DNA of 64,000 nt, taken from Curvularia clavata. Its lineage: Eukaryota. The position numbers were made by a program, and so were the translations under genes. Shown here in pieces: positions 2,806 to 63,637 of this stretch (the stretch's first letter is position 1; every line of letters starts with the position of its first letter). The notes beneath the pieces are model-generated. The model was not told the DNA's origin and did no database searches. It was given only the letters and a program-made list of their open reading frames with translations. The stretch is from positions 310,001-374,000 of the forward strand of contig CP089275.1 of NCBI GenBank assembly GCA_023920165.1. Direction: 5' to 3'.

Positions 2806-4782
2806 TCAATGCTTCTTCTTGGAACCACTCCTGCTCAATCCCGTGCGCGAGGCAAAGCTGGGCGGGAAATCATCAAAGCCAATGTCTTCGTCATCGAATG
2901 CACTGACGTAGTGTGGTGTACGGGGTACTGGCTGCGTGGTGTGGTGCTTACGGCCATCAGAGGTTCGGGTGGACGGAAGCGCGCTGTCCATGTTGCGCAA
3001 GTCCCACGGATCAGCCGTTGGAGACGCTACAGAAGCAGACAAGAAGGGGTTGTCTGGTGTAAGCGAGGGACGGCGGGCTGATGGGGGACGCCCATAGTCT
3101 TGGTTGAAGTTCTTTGGGAAAGAAAGTGGCGGCGGTGCGCGAACCCTCGTTGTTTGCGGTCGGGTAGAGTAATCCGTGGGCAACTGAGCACTAGAAGTGG
3201 GTGGGCTGGGTTGCGAGATGCTTGGGCGGCGCCTACTCGAAGCGTTGACAAGGCCAGATGGACGTGTGATAGAGGCAGCGCTGTCACGGCGTGGCTTGCT
3301 TGGGTTGGCGCTTGACAAGGATCGGTCGCCGCCGCGAGGATCGTAGTATGCAGAGGACTCTTGCTGCTGTCGAGCAGCCGCTCTCCTTTCTTCTCGCTCC
3401 CGTGCTTCAGCAGCCTGCTTCTCGCCCTGCATGAAGAGGGCGTCGGCTTCCAGGAGGCGCTGTTGCTCCGCCTGCTCTTGAGGAGTCATCATTGAAGACA
3501 TCCTTCGGGAGCTAGAAGGCCGCTTGGTGTTGTCGGTTGTGGGAGGTTTGGACTTTTCCTTCTTGCGATCCCTAGCCCTCTGCTCTTCTCGCTCCTTCTT
3601 TTCCTGTTCCAAACGGTCCAACCTCTTGCGCTCACGCTCTTCTTGCTCCAGACGTTCCAACCTCTTGCGCTCACGTTCTTCTTGCTCTAAACGCTCCAAC
3701 CTCTTGCGCTCCTCACGCTCCTTCTTTTCTTGTTCCAGGCGTTCTAAGCGCTTGCGCTCACGCTCTTCTTCGCGGATTGCGGCACGGTCCTTCTCCTTCT
3801 CAGCCAGTTTCCTCTCGGCTCGTTCCCTTTCGCGAGCCTCGTAGCGATCAAGCTCAAAGCGAACATGTCTCTCATTCTCCGACTTTTCAACATCTTCAGC
3901 CAGCCTTCGACTGACATCCTTAAAGAAATTATCTTCGCTGGACTTCTTTCGTCGCTGGCTGGTGTTCTTTGCGGGGCGGGAAGCCTCGGCTATCCCAGAG
4001 CTGGCACGAGAAGAGCCGGAGTGATCGGCATACTGGTCGTAATCAAGCGGATGCGAGCTAGTGGGGGTTTGAGTGATTTGAGGAAGGTCACTTGGTACAA
4101 CCCTTTTGGTCTTGTACGATCCTGTAGACAATCCAGGCTGTGGCCGAGTAGGAGATGCAGGCTCAGTGGTAGCGTGGTGGATAACGGTGGCAGATGGGCG
4201 GGTGCTCCGCCGAGCGGCAGAGGGGTTTAAGTCAGTCTCGGACGGCACAAGCAGCGAAGGTGTCTGGCTAGAGGATGCCGATGGTGTGTGCCGGGGATAG
4301 AGTCCATGGCTTGGAGTAGAAAGAAAGGTGCTGGGTTGGTCAAAGGCAGATGGTGGTAAAGGGGCTTCTGGGAAGCCAGTCCGGATAGTATAAGACGCCT
4401 CGGACTCTCCAGAATCTACAGCAGCATCATTAGATCCAAAGGAACCTGATGAATGACGCTTGTGGGTTTTTGCTGAAACAGAGACGGAGGGGTATTTGCT
4501 GCTTTTTCCTTTCTTGGAGCCAAATTCGATAATAATCTCGGGGTTGATGCGTGGGCCATCCCGGGTAGAAGGTCGGCTGCCACTGTTGGATGGGCGGCGG
4601 CGCGTAGTGAGATAAGTTCCAGAGCTAGTAGGTGTGGGTGGGTTGACCGGAGAAGGAGTGTCGTCGCGCGAGGAGCCTCTCTGGTGGATGTAGGAAGTAG
4701 GAACTCTTCGAACATCCCGACATGGTCTACCACTGCGCGCCTTGTCGCAGGGGTAGATGCGATCACCTTCCATTCGGCACAT
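2806..4782 (-). CDS. Hypothetical 658-aa low-complexity protein with N-terminal Cys motif and central E/R/K-rich helical repeat
   Basis: Long uninterrupted ORF with ATG start; Ser/Pro/Arg-rich; four ERKRL(E/D)RLEQE repeats. Confidence 0.75.
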   Translation of the reverse strand: MCRMEGDRIYPCDKARSGRPCRDVRRVPTSYIHQRGSSRDDTPSPVNPPTPTSSGTYLTTRRRPSNSGSRPSTRDGPRINPEIIIEFGSKKGKSSKYPSVSVSAKTHKRHSSGSFGSNDAAVDSGESEASYTIRTGFPEAPLPPSAFDQPSTFLSTPSHGLYPRHTPSASSSQTPSLLVPSETDLNPSAARRSTRPSATVIHHATTEPASPTRPQPGLSTGSYKTKRVVPSDLPQITQTPTSSHPLDYDQYADHSGSSRASSGIAEASRPAKNTSQRRKKSSEDNFFKDVSRRLAEDVEKSENERHVRFELDRYEARERERAERKLAEKEKDRAAIREEERERKRLERLEQEKKEREERKRLERLEQEERERKRLERLEQEERERKRLDRLEQEKKEREEQRARDRKKEKSKPPTTDNTKRPSSSRRMSSMMTPQEQAEQQRLLEADALFMQGEKQAAEAREREERRAAARQQQESSAYYDPRGGDRSLSSANPSKPRRDSAASITRPSGLVNASSRRRPSISQPSPPTSSAQLPTDYSTRPQTTRVRAPPPLSFPKNFNQDYGRPPSARRPSLTPDNPFLSASVASPTADPWDLRNMDSALPSTRTSDGRKHHTTQPVPRTPHYVSAFDDEDIGFDDFPPSFASRTGLSRSGSKKKH

Positions 4783-42652: not shown

Positions 42653-43855
42653 CTAGGAAAGGTCCATAGGCTCCGCAGCACCGTCACCATTGGATGCAAC
42701 AGAATGTTGCTTCTTGATCGCCTTGGGTGGTGCCTGTGGGAAACTGCCATATGGAGGTGGTGCAGGAACGTTGATACCAGTGTTGGCAGGTTCTTTGTTG
42801 ATTGCAGGGAATTGAGGAGCGCCGCTCAGGTAGCCTATATAGGGCGAAGGGTGGATAGGAGGAGTGGAAGGAGTGGACGAAAGGCGACCTGGCTTTCGAC
42901 CGCCAATGCGCTGCGCTCGAGGTGCTGGAAAACAGGCGTTCTTCACGCGTGTCTGAAATTCCTGAGCAAAGTTGTCGTACGGCTTCTTTTCCTCGGTCGT
43001 CCTCCAACCCATCTTGTTCTTCATACACTCAGCCTTGCGATGACTAATGGTAGAGCCCTCAATACGGATGCCATTGGCCTCGAAACGCCGACAGCAATCA
43101 GATCTAGAGAGAATGAGAAGTACGACCAAGAGACTGACATTGTCGTTGTCAAGGAGATGGGGACAAAAATCGCATACGTTACACGCGAATCGTCGCATCT
43201 CTTCAAGCTCCGCGGTGTCTGTGCAGTTAATGAAGCGCTCAGCCATGGAGTATGGCCGGATCATGTCCCTGCAAATGTGCGTCTGGAGAACATTGGCGAC
43301 CGATGATACTGAAACAGGGTAGATGGCTTTACGATCTATCTTGCTGGTAGCTGTTGATGAGACCGTGCCAGCAATATAAACAATCTCGATATCATCAAAC
43401 GGACCCCGCTCAAGCTTAAGGTCTTTTAGAGACTTTCCTGCTTTCTGGGCTTCCTTGATGATCTCGGCCTTTTTGAGACTGCTTTCGCGGGCAGCTTTGA
43501 CAGCCTCACGTGGAGTGGTGAAGCCGTATTTCTTAGCAAGTGCTACCGAGTCTTCATGCATCTCAAACTTGGACAGTTTACGCTCGACATCTGGAGCGCG
43601 TATCCAGTCTTCCGACCAGGGTTCTTCGGCAAGCACTTTGTAGAAGACTTTGGTCAGTGCGCGGAGTTTGATGTCGTTGTCTGACATTACGCGTTGGCCA
43701 AAGTAGAGCTCATCAGTCTCAGAGTAGGCAGTCTCAATGAAATGCTTTCGCTCCTTTTGGGTGAGAGAGCCACGCGAGGGGTCATTTTTCCATTCCCCAA
43801 TGATCTTGAGAAACTTGGCGTGGAATATGTCATCAAAGTTTCTTGGAGCTGGCAT
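42653..43855 (-). CDS. Hypothetical 400-aa protein
   Basis: Long ATG-initiated ORF with protein-like composition; no family recognised. Confidence 0.6.
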   Translation of the reverse strand: MPAPRNFDDIFHAKFLKIIGEWKNDPSRGSLTQKERKHFIETAYSETDELYFGQRVMSDNDIKLRALTKVFYKVLAEEPWSEDWIRAPDVERKLSKFEMHEDSVALAKKYGFTTPREAVKAARESSLKKAEIIKEAQKAGKSLKDLKLERGPFDDIEIVYIAGTVSSTATSKIDRKAIYPVSVSSVANVLQTHICRDMIRPYSMAERFINCTDTAELEEMRRFACNVCDFCPHLLDNDNVSLLVVLLILSRSDCCRRFEANGIRIEGSTISHRKAECMKNKMGWRTTEEKKPYDNFAQEFQTRVKNACFPAPRAQRIGGRKPGRLSSTPSTPPIHPSPYIGYLSGAPQFPAINKEPANTGINVPAPPPYGSFPQAPPKAIKKQHSVASNGDGAAEPMDLS

Positions 43856-48537: not shown

Positions 48538-50026
48538 TTAGTGGCCACCTTCAACAGCACCGCTCTCGCCAGCACCCTCGCCAGCACCATGGCCTGCGGG
48601 GTTGGGGAAGTAGAAGGCGCAAACAGCGATGATAACATAGGTCATTACACAAAGCACACCTTCTAGGTAGTTAGACTTGCCATCACGGAGGAAAGAACCG
48701 ACAGTGAGGACTGCAAGCACCAATGCAACGGCATCGAAGATGGCAAAGTTGTAGTCCATGTGAACGCCAAGGCCCCAACCAACCAAGACGACAAGTGGCG
48801 CGTTGAACAAGGCGGTCTGAATAGAGGCACCGAGAACATGAGCAAGCGCCATGTTGATCTGGTTGTCATAGGCTTCGTCAATTGCGAGAAGGTGTTCAGC
48901 AATCTTCTCAACAAGCGGGACAAGAATCAGACCAATGAAAGCGTCACTGATTCCACGCTCCTCGACGATATAGGGGATTTCCAGTACGAGGGCGATGGCG
49001 ATGAGTGACACACAGGCGACGGAGATTGCGAGAGCAACCAGGACTTCAATCATGGTGAGCTTGGGCTTCTTCAACTCCTTGTGGCGGTCCTTGTCCTGGA
49101 GGTCGTCCTGTTCGTAGATTTCGTGGAGGAGACCATCGTGGGAAACTGTTTGGAACCAGATGTAGATGAGGTAGCCAACAATTGAGATGATGGCCACACC
49201 GCGAGAGATGAGGCGAGTATTGCGTGTGATATCCACGGTGTTGTCGTAGTCAGGGTTTTGGCTGAGATAGGAGTAGAAGACAGCAGGCAGAACAAGGGCC
49301 ATGGCAGCGACAAGCATCAAGCCAGAACCATTCTCCGAGACCGCTTCGTGGAACTCTTGCTGAACGTGCTTGAGTCCACCAGCAATGAAACTAATCCAAC
49401 TATATTAGATTATGGAGTCCAGACAAACACACATTTACTTACCATGAGCCCAAGCAGAGGAGCAAGTTAGCCAGAATAGAACCCAGGATAGCGGCCTTGA
49501 TAACCTGGACATTAGAGTCGCCTTTGGAAGTCCTCAGCAAAACCATGAAGAGAATGATTTCGACAATGGAGCCGAAGGTAGTCTCTAGGACAAGAGCAAA
49601 AGACTTGTTGGGCATCTTGCGAGAAAACTCTTGGCCGGCGAAGCCCAACATGTTTGCTGCGGGCAACATAGCAATGTAGTTGGTAATGAAGATGGCCAGG
49701 TGCCATTCTGGCTTTGCAAAATGCAATGCGATAGCGATGGGTACGATTGGCCATAGCAAGTTGACGAGCATAGACGGAGTGCTACTGCTCCGTCCACTAA
49801 TAGTGAGGAACTTGATTGGATTGAAGCCGCTGCGGCCACTCTCGCCCTCGGGGTGAATCCCCTTGGTAACCCTGTGGCCATTGTGGTTGTATTGTGGTAG
49901 CGTGTCGCGCCTGCCACGACGATCTTCTGAAGGTCGGCTGCGGTGCTTTTCGGTGCTGTAGGCTCGATCGCGCGAGGAGCGGTGACCGTGGTGGTCCCGC
50001 GAGGGTCGTCGTGAGCCGTGGGCCAT
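48538..50026 (-). CDS. Ca2+/H+ exchanger (CAX/Vcx1-like); exons 50026-49443, 49390-48538
   Basis: GESGRSGF, GSILANLLLCLGSC|FIAGG, LVPLVEKIAEH, IQTALFNAP and DGKSNYLEG motifs; many TM helices. Confidence 0.9.
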
Positions 50027-50356
50027 GGTAATTACTGGTAGGTGGGCACTGGTGGGTTCAGGGTACCGGTGGACGGACTGCTAGGCGGAGTGCGGCGCTT
50101 GGGGCCGTTGGCGCCGTTATTCAAGGTTCGTGGTCGGTTGTGATGGGCATGCAGTGGTGGTACAGGGAGAAGTAGGTGTGCAGAAGATTGAAAGAAAAGA
50201 AAGCCAAATAATAAAGGCCCAGGGAAACTGGGACAAATACAGGGCCCCGGCGTCATCTCGGGCACCGCGTATGGCTTTGGTTTCCCTGTTTGCCCGTTGC
50301 GGGCCGCTGCAACAAGTAGCCGCCGCCTAAACCTAAGCCAATGGCCCGTACGATCG

Positions 50357-50628
50357 CACAGCCTCTTTGCTCTGTCCGCCCACGACACTGCTTGTTTACA
50401 CCGAAACTCTGCGACACGATGCGTTCCGGTCAGCGGCGAGTGTTGCGATTGGCTCAGAGGCACGGGTTTTCGCTGTCAAGCTGAGCTTGTCTGCTGCAGA
50501 CACGTCACCAAGCATCTGGTAGTGGTCCTGGCGATGCTTGGTGCGTCTTGGCTGTGCTTTGATGGAGGGCCAGAACAAGGTTTCATCTCCCTGCGTTTTG
50601 ACGTGGGCCCAGCCTCGAGTACAGCCAC
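50357..50628. promoter_or_regulatory. Cluster of putative calcineurin/Crz1 response elements
   Basis: CACAGCCTC 50357-50365, GGCTGTG 50550-50556, CAGCCTC 50610-50616 and CAGCCAC 50622-50628, upstream of the Ca2+ exchanger. Confidence 0.5.
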
Positions 50629-51319
50629 CGTCGCAAGGGGGAATAGGGTTGCGACTTGGTGTCACCTACTGGAATTCCCGCAGTCCGCCGACATGAATAC
50701 CTGGTGCTGCTGAAGCCAGAGCGAGCCCCCTTGGAACACTCCTATCTGACTGTATCGAGCTGTCCTGGGAGTCAGCTTCAGCTCGCATAGGTACCTGGCC
50801 GTTCTGAGGTAGCGAGCGTGAACGCATCGAGGCCACCAGCCCGCCGCAATGAGGTCACCACTCGTTTACAACAAAGACTATCCGTCCTAGTTCTTGTTCT
50901 TGTTCTGATAGACGAGGTGCGAGATGGATGCGACGATCGCCCAGCATCATAGCTCTGCTTTGAGAACCAATCATCTCCGCATGTCCCCCGTGCGGGGACT
51001 GCAGTCAGCGTGCCTGGAACGCCGGGGGAAGGGGGCTAGCGCTCGGCATGTGCACAGGGGCAGAGTGCAACTGCGCTCATGTACCTTGGAATGCTGAATT
51101 CATCGTCGTCGGTCGAGTCTGTACTGTGTGCCAGACAAGAGATGGAGGCGCTGATAAGGAATCCTGTATCAAGCCCCGAAGATCACCTGCCCTCGTGCAC
51201 GGGGACAGGCGTCATGGACAGGCACGTGTTAGCGTCATGGCAACACGTCCATCAAACAAACACCGCACTGCCATCCCAACTCCTTCTCTCCCACACATAC
51301 CTCTTTGCGCTCCTCAATC

Positions 51320-52951
51320 ATGGTCTTCCTATCCGGCTTTGCGCTGTGCGCTGCCGTAACTAGCGCCAGTGCGCTCCAGATCCCGCTCCTGTCCAACAAC
51401 CATGTCCTGCTCGGGCACCCGCATGGGACTAAACCGCTAGTCAACTCGACAGAGCTGCAGGAGCTCATCAGTGGCGACAGGTTGATGACGCGCGCGAAGA
51501 AGATGTATGAGATTGCCAAACTTGGGGAAGCAGAGTACAACCACCCAACAAGAGTCATTGGAAGCGCTGGTACGCGTGCTCACGTGTCATGGTCCCTGAG
51601 TCTCTACTAATCGCCATCTAGGCCATCTTGGGACGCTATCCTACATCTACGAAACCATCCTTGAACTTGGAGACTATTATACCATTTCAAACCAGACTTT
51701 CCCCGCTGTCTCTGGAAACGTCTTCGAGTCGCGCTTGGTTATCGGACACGATGTGCCTAAGTCTGCAACTCCCATGGGCCTGACTCCCGCAACCAAGGAC
51801 AAGGAGCCAGTTCATGGTGATCTTGTCCAGGTTGCCAACGAGGGTTGCCAGGAGTCAGACTTCCCAGACGCTGTTGCCGGCAACATTGCCTTCATCAAGC
51901 GCGGTGTTTGTCCCTTTGGGACAAAGTCTGAGAACGCTGGTCGCAAAGGTGCCGTGGCAGCCGTCGTGTACAACTATGAGAAGGATGCTGTTTCTGGCAC
52001 TTTGGGAACACCCTCGCCGGATCACGTGGCTACCTTTGGACTCTCTGGTGAAGAAGCAGAGCCTACCCTGAAGAAGCTTGAACAAGGAGAGCAAATCGAT
52101 TCCATTGCTTACATTGATGCCGAGGTCAACCAAATCCTCACCGTCAACATCATTGCTCAGACGACTGAGGGTGACCCCGAGAACTGCGTCATGCTCGGCG
52201 CACATAGTGACAGTGTAACGGAAGGCCCTGGCATCAACGATGACGGGTCCGGCACAATGTCGCTTCTTGAGGTGGCTACCCAGCTCACCAAGTTCAACGT
52301 CTCCAACTGTGTCCGATTCGCCTGGTGGGCCGGTGAAGAAGAAGGCCTGCTCGGCTCTGATTACTACGTTGCCTCGCTCTCCGATGAGGAGAACCAGAAG
52401 ATTCGTCTTTTCATGGACTATGACATGATGGCCAGTCCCAACTTTGCCTACCAAATCTACAACGCCACCAACGCCGTGAATCCAAAGGGATCCGAAGAGC
52501 TTCGTGATCTGTACATTAAATGGTACGAGGACCAGGGCTTGAACTACACCTTCATCCCCTTCGATGGCCGTAGTGATTACGACGGCTTCATTCGCAACGG
52601 CATCCCAGGCGGTGGCATTGCCACTGGTGCTGAGGGTATCAAGACGGAGGAGGAGGTCGCCATGTTTGGTGGCAAGGCTGGTGACTGGTACGACCCTTGC
52701 TATCACCAACTTTGTGATGATGTCGGCAACGTCAACGTAACTGCCTGGGTTGTCAACACAAAGGTAAGAGCTTTGATCTCGAACATGCATCTGGATGAAT
52801 AAGTTGCTAACCATCATAGCTTATCGCTCATTCCGTCGCAACGTATGCGCAATCCTTCAAAGGATTTCCCAAGCGTGAGCTCGAAGTTGCTGCCAAGTCA
52901 ACCGCATACAGAGAGAACGTCAAGTACCACGGTGATAAGTTGTTTATCTAG
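51320..52951 (+). CDS. APE3: Aminopeptidase Y-like M28 peptidase with PA domain; exons 51320-51569, 51622-52763, 52820-52951
   Basis: Signal peptide; IKRGVCPF (PA domain), GAHSDSV, GINDDGSG, WWAGEEEGLLGS, DYDMM and CYHQ motifs. Confidence 0.9.
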
Positions 52952-54664
52952 TTGTTTAGTATCCTTTGTCGTTAATGATAATGGCCTTACGAGCCGACGT
53001 TTGCATGCATCCGAACAATATGCACTGCCCTTTTCCCTTCTAATCTTCTTATGATTTTGCTGGGACCGTTATGATTCTAGGCCCAAGGGCCTTAGAAATT
53101 GCGGAGTCTTTATCTCTTGACATTCACCGATGTATATGTATAGCTCGATCCCCAGGTAGAATTCCAAGGAGATGCATCGGCAAAATTTCGCCCGCACCCC
53201 AGTCCCTTTTGCATTAGCGGTCACGTGACCTTCTCCAACCCAACTCGGAGCCTTCCCATCCCCCGATACCCCGACACCACACTACGGACTTCCGCAACGG
53301 CCACCACGATGCACCTTGACACTACTAGGCAACCAAGCAAGATGCCTCAAGCGGTCCAAGCAGCGCTTTATAAAGCCTACTGGTATGGCGCTGGACATCT
53401 GTCCGTTCGCGACTCTTCGCGTTCCTACGAAAATCGGAAGGTTAACGTAGAATTACGATCTCTGACTTCTATCCTCCCAATACTCCAGGCTCACTTCGAC
53501 ATGAAGATGTGCATGCCGGGACCTCTGTCTGGAATAGATAATCCCTGCAACAAGGCCTTCGGATCACGCAAGCGACCCTTGGCATGCATAAGCTGGCATT
53601 AGTGCTGGCACAGTCAGCATGTATTCTAATGTAAAGAATCTATATCTTAGCACACTAAATCGTTACTGTGCAGCCTAGAATAGATGTGGCGCATGCTCCC
53701 AACTCTCTAGAAGCATCTACGCGTGCGTTGAGTAGGTGCGAACTGCCTTTGTGCTCATTGTCGTGCTCGCTCCCACTCAGCTGTGATCACGCATCTGGTC
53801 TTGCCTTGTGGTGACTATCTATGCTGTCACCGTGCCCAACCACTAGGCGACGTGTCTGTGACAAGCTTATACGCCGTCTCGAATAGCAAGAGTCGAATGC
53901 ATAGAGTCGAAAGAGCTGCCAACACGTTCGCGTGGAGACAGCGCAGTGCACCTTGGAATAAGTGACTGCAGTAAAGCGAGCAGAGGGTGGATACGGTCGA
54001 CTGCACGCTGCGTAGCACTAGCAGCTCGTCGCATGCATCAAAGAGTCAGCACTGGATAGAGGCATGGTTAGGCGATATTGCGTTGTGGTGGCAGTGACGT
54101 TAGTCGTGGTTGCGCATTGATCGACTTGCGAGGTCAGTGTGTTTCTCGCAAAGTCAGCGTGCTGCACGGACTGCTGAAGCTTTGCCATCCCTCTCACAAA
54201 AGTCAGTGGTTGTCCCCTTGCAAATGCAATTGGAGCGAAGCTACACGCAAGCCTATGCGTTAATTCCTGCTGCTCTTCCATTTTCCATATTGTGCATCGC
54301 ACCACAAGCGAGTGCTGCTGTTCTCTGTTCTGATTGCAGTTATGGCTCAGCTGCTTCCTTCGCGCGATTATGACTTGTCAGCCATGCTTCAGCCTCACGG
54401 CGTGGCATAGGCTGCGCTTGCCTCTCTGAACGCTCGAGTGACAGCCTGGCCTTACCACCAGCATTCTAATCTACAGCTTGCTGCAACTCCGTTCCTTCTT
54501 ACGCTCTAGTCAGCACTATCCTATCGCTTTCACAACAGACTAAATAAGTAGATTACCTATACCTAGGGCGACCAGGACACCTCGCAACACCGGGTCCTTC
54601 AGCCGACCTCGAGGCTACGAGATCTTCCTCTGCCGCTCGCGCACACAGAACGTACCCCAAGTCA

Positions 54665-57600
54665 ATGCGATTGCTGCACATCGCAATCGACGGGAGGCTC
54701 AGATGGGCGAAGGAGTACATTGGCAACGAGAAGGTTCCTGACTATGCGATCCTCTCGCACACTTGGGCGGAGGAGGAGGTGATCTTTGATGACCTGAAGA
54801 ACCTCGACAGTGCAGACGACACTAGTGCAAGGCGCAAGGCGGGTTGGAACAAAATTGATTTCTGCGCGCGACAGACAAAGCGAGACGGTCTGGACTACTT
54901 CTGGGTTGACACTTGCTGCATCGACAAGTCGAATAGCCAAGAGCTCCAGGAAGCGATCAACTCTATGTTTCGCTGGTATCAGAACGCGAAGAAGTGTTAT
55001 GTGTATCTTTCAGATGTTAAATGCAACACTGCTGATGCATACAGTGAAGCGGGCCGGAGGTGGAAACCGGCCTTCAGGAAGAGCAGGTGGTTTACCAGAG
55101 GCTGGACACTGCAGGAACTGCTTGCTCCTGCATCAGTTGCATTCTACTCGAAAGAGGGAGAGCTTCTTGGGGACAAGCAGTCCCTGAAAGACACTATACA
55201 CGAGATTACAGGCATACCTGTTGAAGCTCTGTCAGGGAGTAGACTGTCTGACTTTAGCGTAGACGACCGTTTCTCCTGGGCGGAACAACGCCAGACAACG
55301 CGCGAAGAAGACATCGCGTACTGTTTGCTAGGCATCTTTGACATCTGCATGACACTGAGATATACGGAAGGCAAACATAGAGCGATAGAACGATTGCGAC
55401 ATAAGATACAAAAGCACACGAAAGACATTGAAGAGAGGCTTGGCAAAATCTGTAGCTGGCTCTCTGCGCCTGACCCATCTACAAACTACCACAGAGCGCA
55501 CAAAGAGCGGCAGGCCGAGACTGGACTCTGGTTGCTGCAGAACGCAAGATTCACGGAGTGGAAGAAGAGTGCTGCGTCGCGACTGTGGCTATATGGGATT
55601 CCAGGATGCGGAAAGACTATCCTGAGCTGTACCATTGTCGAACATCTGCTACAGCACTGCCGTAACGACGCGGAGATGGTGACGGCGTACTTCTATTTCG
55701 ACTTTAAAGATAAACAAAAGCAGGATCCAGAGCTAATGTTCTGCTCGTTACTCTCACAGCTGCTACAGCGTTCGTCTACGATACCTAAGGGCGTTGACGT
55801 ATTATTCTCAGCTTGTAATAACGGACAACGACAGCCATCATTACACGCGCTTCTAGAGGTAATACTACAGACAATGCAACAGTTCACACACGTCTACGTT
55901 GTTCTTGACGCGCTTGATGAGTGTACACAACGCCCAGAGTTGATGGATGCACTTGAGACTATGGCTGGATGGCAACTTGACCGCGTGCATCTGCTCATGA
56001 CTAGCCGGAAAGAATGGGATATTGAGAGCTCTTTAGTAAGCTACATTAAGAAAGAGGACGCTATCTGTCTTCAGAGGGATGTAGTAGATGAAGACATACA
56101 ACGATACGTTCAACAACGGCTATCTAACGACAAGACTTTGACGAAATGGAACAAGGACGTCGCTATCAGGCAAGAGATTGAGGCTGCCCTGATGCACGGA
56201 GCTCAAGGGATGTACGTGTCTTCACCTACTTTGCGCATAGCTAAAGTTAACAAGGCAGGTTTCGATGGGCTGTATGCCAGCTCGACACGCTAGGAAAGTG
56301 TTGCAATCGAGCGATGCTGCGCAAATCTCTTGCCACTCTGCCGCGAACGCTAGATCAGACATACGACCGCATTCTCTGCACGATAAGCGAGGAACACTGT
56401 GAGTATGCGATGCGCATTCTACAGTGGCTGACATTCTCTGCGCGGCCGCTATTAGTTGAGGAGGTCGCTGAAGTTGTTGCTATCGATGTGGCGCGAGATC
56501 CAGCGTTCGACCGCGATGAAGTATTAGAGGACCCGTTAGAGGCGCTGAATATCTGCTCTAGTCTTGTCACTATTACAACGAGCGAGGTAGAGACAAGATT
56601 AAGACCTGCACAGCGCATCATTGCTTTAGCGCACTATTCTGTCCAGGAGTACCTTGTGTCAGAGAGAATTAAGCAAGGACAGGCAAAGATGTATAGCATG
56701 CAAGAATCTGAATGCCAAAACACGATGATGAAAGGCTCTTTGATGTATCTGCTCCAGTTCCAGCAGCCCTTGTCGACAGAGGTTCTCAACGCATCAGCGC
56801 TCGCAAGGTACACAGCTGAGTTCTGGATCAGCCATCTTCAAAAGACAAGGGACGAGACGGAAGGGAGTCAACTTGCGATGATTTTGATGTCATCTGACAA
56901 CCCTGCATATTTGAACTGGATCAAACTATACGATCTAGACAGGCCTCGGAGAAAACCAGACTTAGGGAAAAGCTTGGGAGGCGTAGCGACGCCACTATAC
57001 TATGCAGCTTCGTTCGGCTTGAATACAATTACAGGACTACTACTTGATAAAGGCGCCGACGTTAACGCGCAGGGTGGACAGCGCGGCAACGCACTACAGG
57101 CAGCTTCATATAGAGGCCACGAGCAGATAGTCAAGATACTGCTTGACAAAGGCGCCAACGTTAACGCGCAAGGTGGATACTACGGCAACGCACTACAGGC
57201 AGCTTCGTATAGAAGGCACGAGCAGGTGGTCAAGATACTACTTGACAAAGGCGCTGACGTTAACGCGCAAGGTGGATACTACGGCAACGCACTGCAGGCA
57301 GCTTCATCTGGAGGCCACGAGCAGGTAGTTAAGATACTGCTTGACAAAGGCGCCAACGTCAACGCGCAAGGTGGAGTCTTGGGCAACGCACTGCAGGCAG
57401 CTTCATCTAGAGGCTACGAGCAGATAGTCAAGATACTGCTTGACAAAGGCGCTGACGTTAACGCGCAAGGTGGATACTACGGCAACGCACTACAGGCAGC
57501 TTCGTTTGGAGGCCACGAGCAGGTGGTCAAGATACTGCTTGACAAAGGCGCTAACGTTAACGCGCAAGATGGACTCTACGGCAACGCACTACAGGCAGCT

Positions 57601-57990
57601 TCATTTGGAGGCCACGAGCAGATAGTCAAGATACTGCTTGACAAAGGCGCCAACGTTAACGCGCAAGGTGGATACTACGGCAACGCACTACAGGCAGCTT
57701 CACTTGGAGGCCACGAGCAGGTGGTCAAGACACTGCTTGACAAAGGCGCTAACGCCAACGCGCAAGGTGGACTCTACGGCAACGCACTACAGGCAGCTTC
57801 ATTTGGAGGCCACGAGCAGATAGTCAAGATACTGCTTGACAAAGGCGCTAACGCCAACGCGCAAGGTGGAGTCTTGGGCAACGCACTGCAGGCAGCTTCA
57901 CTTGGAGGCCACGAGCAGGTGGTCAAGACGCTGCTCGACGCAGGTGCTCGTCAAGCTCAGGAAGATGATGTTGTGTTGAGGGCCCAATAG
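54665..57990 (+). CDS. Fungal NLR: HET effector - NACHT - ankyrin repeats; exons 54665-56211, 56259-57990
   Basis: HET motifs YAILSHTW, WVDTCCIDK, INSMFRWY, WFTRGWTLQELLAP; Walker A GIPGCGKT; Walker B VVLDALDEC; a 47-nt intron restores GMFRWAVCQL; C-terminal ANK array. Confidence 0.93.
57040..57930 (+). repeat. Nine near-identical 99-bp ankyrin-coding tandem repeats
   Basis: Unit LLDKGA(D/N)(V/A)NAQ(G/D)GxxGNALQAASxx(G/R)(H/Y)EQ(I/V)VK(I/T) x9; 891 bp = 9 x 99. Confidence 0.97.
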
Positions 57991-58011
57991 CCTTACTTAG
58001 ACACCTAGTAA

Positions 58012-58151
58012 CATCCCTCCCTGGAAGGCCGAAATCCTTCTGTACTGGGATCAGCCATTCGGAGCGCGAGAAATTGGAGATCACAAGCATAACCTTATGT
58101 GTGAGTGGCTTATCCCGGCTCAAGAGGTTTTCGGGGACGTAGGGAGGGACG
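58012..58151. repeat. Imperfect 49-bp inverted repeat (fold-back) just after the NLR stop codon
   Basis: Arms 58012-58060 and 58103-58151 align without gaps, 34/49 complementary overall; main blocks 10/11, 9/10 and 13/16. Confidence 0.75.
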
Positions 58152-58987
58152 CTAAGCATTTCAAATCAGTGCAGCAGATAAAGCATCACCCAGCAGAGCG
58201 TGACTCAAAGCCGTTAGCATGCGCCACACCTGTTCAATAGGCCGCGCAAGGCACCTAGTTATAGCGTTGTATTTATTACAGTAATATACGGCAGGTCGTC
58301 AGCGTGCTAATGCAGGCTGATGTAGGCCAAGCTTGATAAATGGATCCTCCTCCCCGCTCTTTGGGGCTTTCGACGAGCTCGTTCGCATGTTTGAATGATC
58401 TTCAAAGCCTGAGAATATGGTCATTGTCGCCTATTTTTCTGCACAGAGCCTCAGGTTATTGGAAAGATCCTCAATGTTGCATGTAGACAGGGGGGTTTCT
58501 TCGAAGAGTCATTCGCAGCCGTCGACGAAACGGTTGATAGCACCAACAACACTGAAGAGATCCTGGTCGGAGCCAACTGGTCTGAAGCAGAGTAAGCCGA
58601 TTGACATTAACTATGCAGGAACCTTAGCTATCTAGGTTCGCAAATGATAGCGTCCGAAGTTCCGATCTGCCAACCTGTCTCGGGACATGGTGTGTCTCCC
58701 AACCTAGGGATGGACCTTACGTCATTTCAACCCTGTACATTAGCTTTTGACTACCGATCTGGGTGCCATGCGATTCACGATAACACAGAATGGAAAATAC
58801 ATGATCTGTGCCCCAGCGGTCTCTGTTCTTGTGTGCTACGGTGCAGCATTGATTTAAACTATTTGCCTACGACACGGAACTCCGACAATATTAAATTAGC
58901 CAGCTGAACCTTGTTTATACCTTTTATCTACAACTACCCATACCCTCACCTACGTTTCAACCAATTTCAAAAGCTTTTATTCAAGAC

Positions 58988-60480
58988 ATGCCTGCGTCAT
59001 CGTCGCCTCCTCCTCTCGATGTCCTGATATCTGGTTCTGGTATTGCGGGGCCTTGCTTTGCTTACTGGCTTAACCGTCTCCTTCCATCTTCACAGATCAC
59101 AGTTGTAGAGCGCAGTCCTGAACCACGTTTGGGTGGCCAAGCGGTCGACCTTCGCTCATCATGCCTGCCCATTGTGAAGAAAATGGGGTTGTTGGACAAG
59201 GTCAAACAATACAATACCACAGAGGTGGGGATGCAGTTTGTATACCGTGATGGTAAGAGGAGGGCTACCTTTGAAGCAACTGGAGAAGAGGAACGTCAGA
59301 GCGGTATGTTTTTACTTCAGCCCCCTTTTTTTAATTCTGATAAATGGTCAGAACAAGCCGATATGCATGCTGGAAGACATTGATCCATGCTGACTCAACA
59401 CAGCAACGAGTGAGTACGAGATTCTTCGTGGAGACATGGCGCGCATCGTCTACGAAGCCACAAAAGACAACCCAAACATCACCTTTGTCTTTGGCGATAT
59501 GATCACTGAGATTGAGGAAAAGGATAACAACAAAGTCGAAGTCACATTTAAGAACAAACTTCCGAAAAAGCAGTACAATCTCGTCGTGGGTGCAGATGGA
59601 CAAATGTCACGGACCCGTCGCCTAGTCTTCGGTCATGGCCCCAACAACGATGACTACCTGTATCGCTTAGGACAGTACTCTGCTCTCTTCACGATGCCCC
59701 GGGACCCCACCGACACAAACTACGCCCAATGGTACAACGCGTCACGTGGCCGCCTCTTTCTCCTCCGACCAGACCAATACGGCACGACACGAGCTTACAT
59801 CGCCGTTACCGACAGCAATCTTTCCCGCTTCGACGAGATCGACCGCCTGCACAAGAACGGAACGCGAGAAGAACAGCAAGCGTGGTTTGAAAACGAGTTC
59901 AAAGATGCCGGCTTCCAAGCGGAGCGTTGCATCCGTGAGATGAAAAGAGCAGACGACTTCTACATGCAACAGATTGCGCAGGTGAAAATGGATACTTGGG
60001 TCAAAGATCACGTAGCCTTGATCGGAGACGCTGCATATTGTCCCAGCCCCATTTCTGGTGTGGTACGTATAATCCCTATCCCTTTTCTCAACTTCTTGAC
60101 CCCCAGGAAACACCTTATTTCCGCACACTTCTCAGGAATCTGACATGAAACAGGGCACAGGCGCAGGTATAGTAGGCGCCTATATCCTCGCCGGCGAACT
60201 CTCTCGTTCCCCCAATGATATCCCCTCTGCCCTCGCCAACTACGAACGCATCACTCGGCAGTACGTCGACAAAGCGCAGAGACTCATCCCTGGGGCGCCA
60301 CAGATTGCCAATCCCCAGACGGAATGGGGAATCAGCCTCTTCAACACCGTGACGGGTGTCTTATCGCATCCTTTTGTCCAGCGATTCAGTGGTGTGGTGG
60401 GGAAGGTGATCCCAGCGTTTGGGACGACCAAGGCGTGGGCACCGCCGGATTACAAGGCGGAGGAGGGAGTGTCGCTTTAG
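58988..60480 (+). CDS. FAD-dependent monooxygenase/oxidoreductase (FAD_binding_3-like); exons 58988-59303, 59404-60062, 60154-60480
   Basis: VLISGSGIAG, GGQAVDL, EYEILRGD, VVGADG and LIGDAAYCPSPISGV|GT motifs. Confidence 0.9.
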
Positions 60481-61353
60481 GGTTCGGTTGGGTACCTTGA
60501 CTCTATGGGTGGCTAACAGTCTTTGGGTTTGTAATTTTCGTTTTCTTTGGGGTCTAAAGTATGTTTGATATGATGCTGTGCCACTAATTCTGCTCAAGTT
60601 AGAATGGCTAGAGTATCCTTTAATTATTGTAGCTAGGGTAAAAGCGATTCCTTTCCATACCGTACTTGGATAGGAAGTTCTTATGTTAGTAAGATAATAC
60701 AGTTTCAAACTGAAGATACACATTACGCAGATGGGTCTCAAAAGCACCTCCGTATAAAGCGAGATTATGGGTAGTTTGTAGGAATCAAATCATTTGTGGC
60801 CTCCTTGACTTCAGCCAGCACATATCTGAAAAAAAAAAAACGAGCCTTGTTCCAATATTATCATGGTATACCGCCACTCCCCTACCCTGAGACAGTACTC
60901 GTGGATGTTTTTAATCATGCTTATGTTAAGAGCTCTCATGAATTTCCTGTCGCCAGAGCTACCGGCCATCTAGAAAGAAATTGATTATCAATATCCCGGC
61001 AAACTATGTATATTCCTGTGATCATAACAAACCTTCCTATTATTATTATTTTTATTTTGCGATAGTACCTCCATTTAAGTTTAGAATGCCTTTCTTCTGC
61101 TTGTTCGTGATTCTAAGACTTCTTAGTCCGTCAATAGACCGACAAGCTTTCAGCATCCATTACTGTTGAATACCTCTTCATTCATACTAAACTAGTCTCG
61201 GCTATCTTCTGATATCCCTAGCTCCCCCACGCTACATACGTCCACAGCGCGTTGTTGCGTAGTGTGCGCACGGCCGCAGAAAGCCAACGACCCCACCAAA
61301 CCCGCCGGTGGGTTTTGTGAACATGCAGATCCAGACAACTGCCAAAGCCAAAT

Positions 61354-62899
61354 ATGGCGCCCTCCATGCCTTCAGCGCTTACTTTTGAGCTGCTAGGAAA
61401 ATGCTCGGTATGTGTCGCAGTGAGAAGAAATTGTGGACCAACGATTGACAAGTCCAGGTCACTAGAGCGCGCGCTGCGACTCTCCACCTCCCTCATGGCC
61501 CTGTGCCCCTCCCCATCTTTATGCCGGTTGCGACCCAGGCTTCGCTCAAAGGCCTTACACCAGACCAACTTGAGGACCAGGGCTGTCGCCTCTGTCTAAA
61601 CAATACATATCATTTGTACGGCAAACAAGACAACCCAATTCATCCTCCCAGAAACTAATATGTGGGAGAGGTCTCAAGCCAGGACAGGCAACCCTCGATG
61701 CGATAGGCGGCGCGCACAAGCTCCAGTCATGGCCACATAATATTCTCACAGGTGCCAGCCGCAAGCCAATGCAAACAAGAGACATGTGGAGATGCTGACT
61801 GGTGCAGATAGTGGTGGGTGGGTGGAGATCCCAACTTGATTGCAGCGTGCTCTGAGACTGACGCAAACGCCAGTTTCCAGATGGTATCGCTCCTTAAGCT
61901 TGCCAAAGTGACAGAAGAAGGAGTGCGATTTCTTAGTCCCCACGATGGATCGCCAATGCTGCTCACCCCCGAACACTCCATCTCGCTTCAAAATTCCATT
62001 GGTAGCGATATCATAATGCAGCTCGACGACGTGATTGTAACTACGTCGCCGGATCATGCGCGCATGAAGGAGGCTATGGAGCGCTCGGTGCGTTGGCTCG
62101 ACCGATGCATTCAGGCACACAAGTACCCCGAGAGGCAGAACCTTTTCTGTATCATACAAGGAGGCCTGGATCTGGAGATGCGGAGAGAGTGCACCGCCGA
62201 AATGGTCGCACGAGACACTCCTGGTATTGCGATCGGAGGTCTGTCTGGCGGAGAAGAGAAGGACTCGTACTGCAAGGTTGTCAAGACATGCACGGAGCTG
62301 CTTCCTGAGAAGAAGCCGCGATATGTCATGGGTGTTGTATGCTGCCTTGTTTGACCCGGTTGAATCAACTTACTGACCACCGTAGGGCTACCCGGAGGAC
62401 CTTGTAGTCTCTGTAGCACTTGGTGCAGATATGTTTGACTGCGTGTGGCCAACGCGAACCGCTGTACGCCATTCTCCCCTTTATCCTTTCTACTGCATCA
62501 CTAACCACCACCCAGCGCTTCGGTAACGCCATCACATCCCGTGGCTCCCTGAACCTGCGCAATGCCATCTACTCTGAAGATTTTGGCCCCATTGAAGAGG
62601 GCTGCACCTGCACTTGCTGTCGTCCCACATCAGCGGGTGGTCTGGGCATCACGCGTGCCTATATCTACCATGTTACGGCAAAGGAGACGGCCGGTGCACA
62701 TCTCCTTACCATGCACAATGTACACTATCAGCTGAGCTTGATGAAGCGTGCGAGAGAGGCCATTCTTGCGGATAGATACCCGCAGTTTCTAAAGGAGTTT
62801 TTCAACGACCTCTATGATGGAGATAAGGAGAAATATCCCAAGTGGGCGGTCGATGCACTGAGAGGTGTTAATGTTGATCTTCTCAGTGATGAAGCTTAG
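61354..62899 (+). CDS. QTRT1: Queuine tRNA-ribosyltransferase catalytic subunit; exons 61354-61407, 61458-61615, 61669-61751, 61808-61817, 61874-62336, 62386-62463, 62516-62899
   Basis: FMPVATQ, NNTYHL, TDSGGFQM (needs the 10-nt exon), [36 protein letters not shown], and CTCTCC plus HN zinc site. Confidence 0.93.
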
Positions 62900-63637
62900 G
62901 GTTTGGTTGATTGGGACTATATAGAGTTGGTGGTAGAGAAAGCTATATCGACCAATTTGACCTATCCTTTTTCGCACATGCGGCTCATCTTGGGCACTTC
63001 TCTTAAGAAGACTTACCAACACATCATCTTAGATGATGTCCAGCCCGAAAAGAGAAGTAACTGCAATGTCTGCGTGTAGGCTACAAGTAGACCTTGGGAT
63101 GTTTACGGCCCTTACTAACAGGGTTGCAAGAGCTTAAATCTATTAGCTCTCCTTTCTCTAAAATGGGCTGGGGTGATTCAATCCCATAAGAGCATGGCGG
63201 TGTGACTCGACGAGGTGTATCGATAGATGTGTTGCTATCATCGACCGTAGACGGTCACCTCGGTGTTCTGATTGGCGTGTCAGGACAGACGGCAGCTGCG
63301 GAACGGTTAGGTCTCAAAGTCCTTATTCATTGGCTTCCCGAACTGACAAAAGGCGGTATTTCCAAACCAGAGGTGGTTGTTGAGGTTCGGTATATAAGAG
63401 TTTCTAGAGGTAAGGCAGTGTCTGGTACCGATTACCAGTCGACAACTGCATCATCGCGAGTGGACGTGAGTTGATTGTGGTCCCACGTTTGCAATGAGGA
63501 CACGCAGCGCCTATAAAAGGATCGTTCTCGCAACTCTACCATCCGTTCAGCTATACAACAGCATAGCCATCACTTCTATGAAGCAACCCAACTCTGACCC
63601 CATCCAACCCCTTTACTAAAGCACCACGATCCAGAAA

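Follow-up and report, generated by a model that had tools for sequence, protein, structure and literature searches.

In a 64-kb window of the Curvularia clavata genome (the whole stretch analyzed, 64,000 nt; assembly GCA_023920165.1, contig CP089275.1, positions 310,001 to 374,000 of the forward strand), a gene for a fungal NOD-like receptor (NLR) lies between the genes for an M28 peptidase and a FAD-dependent monooxygenase (FMO) and is bracketed by two short stretches, here called arms, that resemble each other in inverted orientation. A previous annotation made from the letters alone (the sequence-only reading) had taken the arms for degenerate terminal inverted repeats (TIRs) and the interval for a transposase-less, Pack-type vehicle that moves NLR genes. 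From the gene model, the presence of the NLR in a close relative, its absence from distant ones and a junction whose gene order varies among them, we infer that this is probably an ordinary NLR that came to a recurrent breakpoint by rearrangement, with no transposon involved. The arms are unlikely to be transposon ends, and the transposon vehicle is unproven. The features concerned are the following, in coordinates of the window:

51600..52951, + strand: M28 peptidase with PA domain, 3' part (Pfam Peptidase_M28 6e-43, PA 2e-17)
53578..53697, unstranded: left arm, 120 nt, 626 nt past the M28 stop and 968 nt before the NLR ATG
54665..56211, + strand: NLR exon 1, ATG at 54665, HET and NACHT/NPHP3_N NTPase domains (Pfam)
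56212..56258, + strand: NLR intron, 47 nt, GTACGT...CAG, phase 2
56259..57990, + strand: NLR exon 2, winged-helix region and ankyrin repeats, stop at 57990
57038..57939, + strand: ankyrin-coding tandem array, 9.1 units of 99 nt, 89% matches, no indels
58216..58331, unstranded: right arm, 116 nt, 226 nt past the NLR stop and 656 nt before the FMO ATG
58988..60143, + strand: FMO (Pfam FAD_binding_3), ATG at 58988 followed by a GSGIAG motif

A scan with the M28 exon returned 79 fungal metagenome loci with 52 to 91% protein identity, in which we located the neighboring genes by tblastn with the window proteins. Of these loci, 35 continue for at least 3 kb past M28; none held the NLR there, and its presence at this site appears to be specific to the lineage of the window. 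The sequence-only reading had named syntenic conservation of the NLR as something that would speak against mobility, and such conservation was not seen in these 35 relatives. In a quick maximum-likelihood tree of M28, computed for 63 loci and the window after leaving out 16 loci with an aligned stretch below 360 aa (L054 and L055 among them), the window fell into a group of eight rows with L001, L008, L002–L004, L007, and L009 (Shimodaira–Hasegawa-like approximate likelihood ratio test 92), the smallest strongly supported group of the tree being one of 18 rows. The gene order in the window is M28, NLR(+), FMO(+), g61746(−), TGT(+); in the relatives, tblastn gave the following orders:

L002 and L003: M28, FMO(+), ..., TGT(−), g61746(+)
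L009, and likewise L055 from outside the tree: M28, g61746(−), TGT(+), FMO(−)
L007: M28, g61746(−), TGT(+)
L008: M28, TGT(−), g61746(+)

With at least four gene orders following M28 in the nearest relatives, the junction appears to be a recurrent, repeatedly reused rearrangement breakpoint. The Na/Ca-exchanger neighbor upstream was kept in nine loci. These relatives are only 72 to 79% identical to the window in the M28 coding DNA, and blastn of 52000–60200 against the 79 loci found homology in the coding parts only, ending at 52945–52965 past M28 and resuming inside FMO at 59012–59022 (L002, L003, L009, and L055). The spacer between M28 and FMO is ~980 nt long in L002 and in L003 and contains no NLR; Smith–Waterman comparison of the two spacers with 52952–59012 gave scores of 16 to 17, within the range of shuffled sequence (maximum 20). 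Because these spacers do not align, the breakpoints are bounded only to 52951–59012, by coding homology.

An unrelated gene with a HET domain only occupies the slot of the NLR in three loci: it lies just after M28, ~0.8 to 0.9 kb past it, in L043 (6063–7487, + strand) and L024 (~3601–3945), both among the 35 loci, and in the shorter L044 (~3660–3956). This gene is 25 to 27% identical to the HET domain of the window (Pfam HET 4e-27 for L043), and the open reading frames (ORFs) scanned in L043 yielded no NACHT domain. In L051, a weak ankyrin match lies 9.5 kb upstream.

In close relatives the arrangement of the window is retained. A search of public runs with 51500–60500 returned 23 runs, four of which were compared with the window over 49000–63000. 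Run X2, which carries the same organism label and comes from another sample, was identical wherever it covered the stretch. Run X3 comes from a second organism (organism B, the window organism being A) and contributes one contig of 10,267 nt that matches 49000–57195 and 57889–58655 with 183 differences in ~8.2 kb (2.2%). As this single contig runs across 49000–58655, a relative diverged by 2.2% has the M28 gene, the two arms, the NLR, and the beginning of the spacer that follows in collinear order, and the NLR has the same position in organisms A and B. Among the joints listed for the four runs, beyond which there are 68 more, none skips a stretch the size of the cassette; the gaps of run X23 (52761–54411) and the short contigs of run X4 say nothing on absence.

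The gene between the arms is an intact HET-NACHT-ANK fungal NLR, with all three domains in one open gene. A 47-nt GT..AG intron rejoins the reading frame of two long ORFs, and Pfam recognizes HET (5e-11), NPHP3_N (4e-43), and NACHT (3e-10) in exon 1 and Ank_2 (2e-78) and GPIID_WHD (6e-4) in exon 2. The domains and the restored frame bear out the identity given to the gene by the sequence-only reading, which was also right in placing the cassette between two ordinary enzyme genes (the M28/PA peptidase and the FAD monooxygenase) and in seeing the NLR alone inside it, this being the sole gene that inspection of ORFs and Pfam matches found between the arms. The units of the ankyrin array are 87 to 90% identical to the reference copy at the DNA level, and with such near-identical tandem units the gene fits the subclass of NLRs with high internal conservation (HIC). 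At the joint 57195 to 57889, 693 nt, exactly seven ankyrin units, are missing from the organism B contig; the difference may be a real copy-number polymorphism or a collapse in short-read assembly.

Homologues in Pleosporales are HET-NACHT proteins with 65 to 85% identity that share the domains of the NLR. All 8,000 candidates scored had E ≤ 0.001, the top match being 85% identical, and the named matches come from Lophiostoma, Epicoccum, Pyrenophora, Alternaria, Bipolaris, and Didymella. Judged by these matches, the gene appears to belong to a large, widespread, and conserved Pleosporales family that is already known. The contigs of run X23 skip 49391–49442 and 51569–51620 and end at 52761 and 56211, both intron borders; because they skip introns and end at exon borders, the run looks RNA-derived. 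One contig spans 54411–56211 of the NLR and ends at the border of exon 1, a hint that the gene is transcribed in this relative, which is ~2 to 3% diverged. The same run gives transcript support for the Na/Ca exchanger and the M28 peptidase. It has a coverage hole at 53203–54136 that includes the left arm, and such a hole is no proof that transcription is lacking.

Rereading the arms, we found the letters, coordinates, blocks, and block order just as the sequence-only reading had described them. The outer block (53578–53602 against the reverse complement of 58307–58331) has 20 of 25 matches (80%), and the inner block has 27 of 31 with a 2-nt gap and an exact core of 13 nt. The blocks are collinear, with weaker likeness between them, giving in total 83 identities in 110 aligned columns. 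We also considered whether two paralogous genes, convergent in orientation, might have their 3' ends in the outer blocks, and rejected this. The ORF 53144–53602 ends in LACISWH* and a short minus-strand frame ends in LAYISLH* at 58307; neither ORF has a Pfam match or a homologue in the relatives, the arm similarity runs on beyond the stop codons, and the upstream peptides of the two frames are unlike each other.

Set against the whole window, the repeat is inconspicuous. Each block alone has a BLAST E value of 0.25 or 0.75 against the window, and in a self-BLAST run with somewhat higher gap costs the high-scoring segment pair (HSP) over the whole arms (122 columns, 62% identity, score 18, E = 5.3) is outscored by 14 unrelated HSPs outside the ankyrin array. 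In a null drawn from real sequence, 6,320 pairs of 800-nt tiles, whose boundaries split the arms between tiles, eight non-ankyrin pairs scored at least 20 and the best two 21, as against 23 for the arms. Real sequence is heavier-tailed than shuffled sequence.

The sequence-only reading had also called the four mismatches of the inner block RIP-like, as all of them are transitions. They are indeed transitions, but the pattern expected of repeat-induced point mutation (RIP), namely C-to-T changes at CpA, an AT-rich composition, and a low (CpA+TpG)/(ApC+GpT) index, is not supported. Only one of the four stands in a CpA/TpA context, the (CpA+TpG)/(ApC+GpT) index of 1.25 to 1.32 is normal when judged against the usual RIP-index thresholds, as is the GC content of 0.48 to 0.51 at the region, and transitions make up ~79% of the ordinary differences to organism B.

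Two further observations touch the arms and their spacer. The second-best inverted match among pairs spaced 2.4 to 8.4 kb joins 53817–53863, in the spacer of the left arm, with 59605–59651, inside the coding region of FMO (47 nt, 72%, score 21, E 0.22), and is not collinear with the arms. The palindrome GCATGC occurs 28 times in the window against 26.2 expected and is not enriched window-wide; with its frequency so close to expectation, we rejected it as an inflator of inverted matches. Five of the 28 copies (53003, 53511, 53582, 53691, and 54031), a grouping noticed post hoc, cluster within ~1 kb of the spacer between M28 and the NLR, and three of these five extend to GCATGCAT. The cluster may be a regulatory motif or chance.

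The search for transposon hallmarks was negative. The sequence-only reading had itself reported no target-site duplication (TSD), and this holds: the best direct match is 5 nt long and appears only when both ends are shifted by 4 nt, and 237 of 2,000 random position pairs (12%) equal or better it. BLAST found no further copy of an arm within the window, and comparison of the arms with 652 kb of DNA from the relatives gave no match at E < 1. Summed contig depth over the arms equals that of the single covering contig (53.3 and 58.3 in X2, 121 and 129 in X3), while over the ankyrin array it rises at least 5-fold; this is weak evidence that the X2 and X3 contig sets hold no second arm copy at 85% likeness or more. 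Single-copy ends were what the sequence-only reading had said would count against a vehicle, and as far as these data reach, they do. None of the 47 window ORFs scanned matches a transposase or recombinase family in Pfam, in agreement with its description of the cassette as transposase-less, and Pfam and ORF scans found no transposase or relic of one in the 968 nt that separate the left arm from the NLR ATG. Neither arm has terminal repeats of its own or a flanking duplication, and we know of no superfamily motif that the terminal letters of the arms would match.

Arrival by rearrangement would account for these results. The NLR would most simply be a gain in the lineage of the window, brought in by ectopic insertion or duplication during repair of a double-strand break or via a small inversion of the kind typical of Dothideomycete "mesosynteny"; inversions shape gene order in Dothideomycetes, as described in PMC3516569. 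The arms would then be either a chance resemblance, the closest of its class within the window, or a decayed inverted duplication left by staggered breaks at the ends of the rearranged segment. In Drosophila, an inversion through staggered breaks duplicates unique sequence and leaves the duplicates in inverted orientation at its two breakpoints (PMC1885836). If the arms are homologous, this would be their simplest source, as neither a TSD nor a transposase nor additional copies are required. The likeness to the Drosophila breakpoints, as far as that source describes them, extends to short inverted duplicates at the segment ends that have neither TSD nor transposase, and to breakpoint reuse, which is known there and which the junction here also appears to show. 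The Drosophila duplicates have a mean identity of 88% (PMC1885836), whereas here the homology of the arms is uncertain and the sample lacks an uninverted ancestor.

Several points weigh against this account. In a local Smith–Waterman comparison (+1/−1, gap −3/−1) of 800 nt at the left arm with 710 nt at the right, the arms scored 23, and none of 300 dinucleotide shuffles reached that value (mean 11.8, standard deviation 1.2, maximum 17). Among inverted pairs 2.4 to 8.4 kb apart (4,074 pairs of tiles, here overlapping), the arms were again at the top with 23, followed by 21 and 18 and by scores of at most 17. Of the 35 mismatches of the arms, 18 are transitions and 17 transversions; compared with 400 chance alignments from the window, in which the transition fraction was 0.334, this is an excess with binomial P = 0.021 by a measure independent of the score. 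A cargo transposon, too, would leave an insertion of ~5 kb between two genes that are direct neighbors in L002 and L003, and an old insertion could lose both its TSD and its likeness to sister copies. The staggered-break model comes from Drosophila, and the papers cited here do not show it for fungi. The sample holds no relative of intermediate divergence (2% to ~20%), which leaves both the breakpoints and the direction of change (gain here or loss elsewhere) to indirect evidence. Because the local, spacing-class, and transition tests favor a real, old homology of the arms and the window-wide tests do not, we consider it about as likely as not. Statistically the repeat is marginal, with a verdict that depends on the comparison set: of the degenerate inverted repeats proposed by the sequence-only reading, the description and the lead over local shuffles stand, while across the window they are near chance (E = 5.3).

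Three other explanations deserve weight. The arms could be decayed TIRs of a nonautonomous, cargo-carrying class II transposon of Pack type, comparable to ToxhAT or ToxTA, with a transposase encoded elsewhere having put the NLR and its promoter into the M28–FMO spacer in the ancestor of organisms A and B. The two collinear blocks with similar spacing, an alignment that opens with six matching nucleotides at both outer ends, and the standing of the arms as the best inverted pair of their spacing class, with an excess of transitions, are all as this explanation would have them. So are the lack of the NLR from this site in all 35 relatives and the adjacency of M28 and FMO in L002 and L003, where the ~980-nt spacer compares with the 1,282 nt that cutting out 53578–58331 would leave. 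There is precedent for such an element in ToxhAT, a single-copy, TIR-bounded, transposase-less cargo element from the same order, described in PMC12506042, and in Podospora, according to PMC13449251, NLRs whose internal repeats closely resemble one another are associated with transposable elements (TEs) and move on occasion. Yet the repeat itself is at chance level window-wide, and the TSD, a second arm copy (in the window, in the DNA of the relatives, or by contig depth), and a transposase or its relic before the ATG were all looked for and not found; synteny between organisms A and B is stable as well. On this balance we hold the Pack-type NLR vehicle of the sequence-only reading to be unlikely. 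A milder variant, in which the arms are two independent, opposed copies of a short dispersed repeat similar to miniature inverted-repeat transposable elements and do not mobilize the NLR, would suit the possible homology over ~120 nt and the intergenic position of both arms. It fares worse still and strikes us as very improbable, for neither the window nor the 652 kb of relatives' DNA contains another copy, the depth is that of single-copy sequence, and, as stated above, the single arms have neither terminal repeats within them nor a duplication beside them.

The third possibility dispenses with any insertion: the NLR would be ancestral at the site and lost or moved away in the sampled relatives, the resemblance of the arms being chance. 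The age of the family and its conservation across Pleosporales fit this view, as does a junction rearranged independently several times, since such events can delete or displace genes, and so does a HET-domain gene directly after M28 in L024, L043, and L044. That gene, however, is the distant one described above, with only 25 to 27% identity and no NACHT in the scanned ORFs of L043, and the nearest group has five informative loci, in four different arrangements, all of which are without the NLR, so that several independent losses would be needed. We regard an ancestral NLR as improbable, to about the same degree as the cargo transposon, and arrival of the NLR by rearrangement as the account that probably holds.

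Comparison with known systems gives a mixed picture. The NLR shares with the HET-E/HET-D-like class and with the HIC NLRs of Podospora the succession of HET, NACHT/NPHP3_N, winged helix, and a C-terminal repeat array; the repeats of the HET-E/HET-D-like class are WD40, while those of the window gene are ankyrin, and an immune or allorecognition role is putative here. The account in PMC13449251 describes the Podospora HIC NLRs as patchy in distribution, TE-associated, and occasionally translocated. The presence of the NLR likewise varies between species in our data, but the gene sits among housekeeping genes and no TE was found in the window. ToxhAT spans 14 kb and has TIRs of 74 bp, a TA target duplication, empty sites, and locations that vary between isolates, as reported in PMC12506042; like ToxTA, it belongs to the same order, is single-copy, has no working transposase of its own, and carries host-relevant genes between its TIRs. 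In contrast to ToxhAT, the arms here agree in only ~62 to 75% of their letters and have no TSD beside them, organisms A and B carry the interval in one and the same position, and no empty site was mapped. Starships, which carry NLR genes in Pezizomycotina (PMC13449251; PMC9156397), are characterized in PMC12506042 by a captain, a tyrosine recombinase with DUF3435 that lies at their 5' edge, and by a length of tens to hundreds of kilobases, whereas here none of the 47 ORFs matches a recombinase family and the interval measures 4.75 kb.

The surroundings of the NLR are unremarkable. The 3' part of M28 consists of an exon to 52763, an intron at 52764–52819, and a last exon at 52820–52951 with its TAG at 52949–52951. 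Pfam recognized no ORF in the spacers between M28 and the NLR and between the NLR and FMO, and scans for Rfam families and tRNAs, both at the region and window-wide, gave no match. Of 36 spacer ORFs of at least 40 aa, one has a single 22-aa match in the relatives (E 1e-4, L056) and 35 have none at all. The genes elsewhere in the window are housekeeping genes, with a mitochondrial ribosomal protein, Rtr1, SH3/BBC1, an MFS transporter, a peroxidase, adaptin, a histone deacetylase, ribosomal S17e, the Na/Ca exchanger, and TGT. In the self-BLAST, the strongest direct repeats outside the ankyrin array lie at 3582–3770 (63 to 103 nt, 77 to 86%, E 3e-14 and 2e-12), inside an ORF of 687 aa that has no Pfam match. 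Another direct repeat (63 nt, 71%) lies at 52–204, and an imperfect palindrome of ~130 nt at 43363–43490 is 62.6% self-complementary (score 21).

The question of how fungal NLRs relocate and how their repertoires change would gain a testable mechanism from a small TIR-bounded carrier. The Podospora study in PMC13449251 goes no further than the association of HIC NLRs with TEs and their occasional translocation. Should the arms, against our expectation, be the worn ends of a transposase-less DNA transposon that captured a whole NLR with its promoter, which we think unlikely, they would mark fungal immune-receptor genes as cargo of a Pack-type vehicle and provide a mechanism for the relocation of HIC-type NLRs. 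The repeat is too weak for such a claim, and what the locus itself offers is an NLR position that appears lineage-specific, at a junction that seems to have been broken recurrently. The interval from M28 to FMO, easily amplified or extracted from congeners, is a defined test case.

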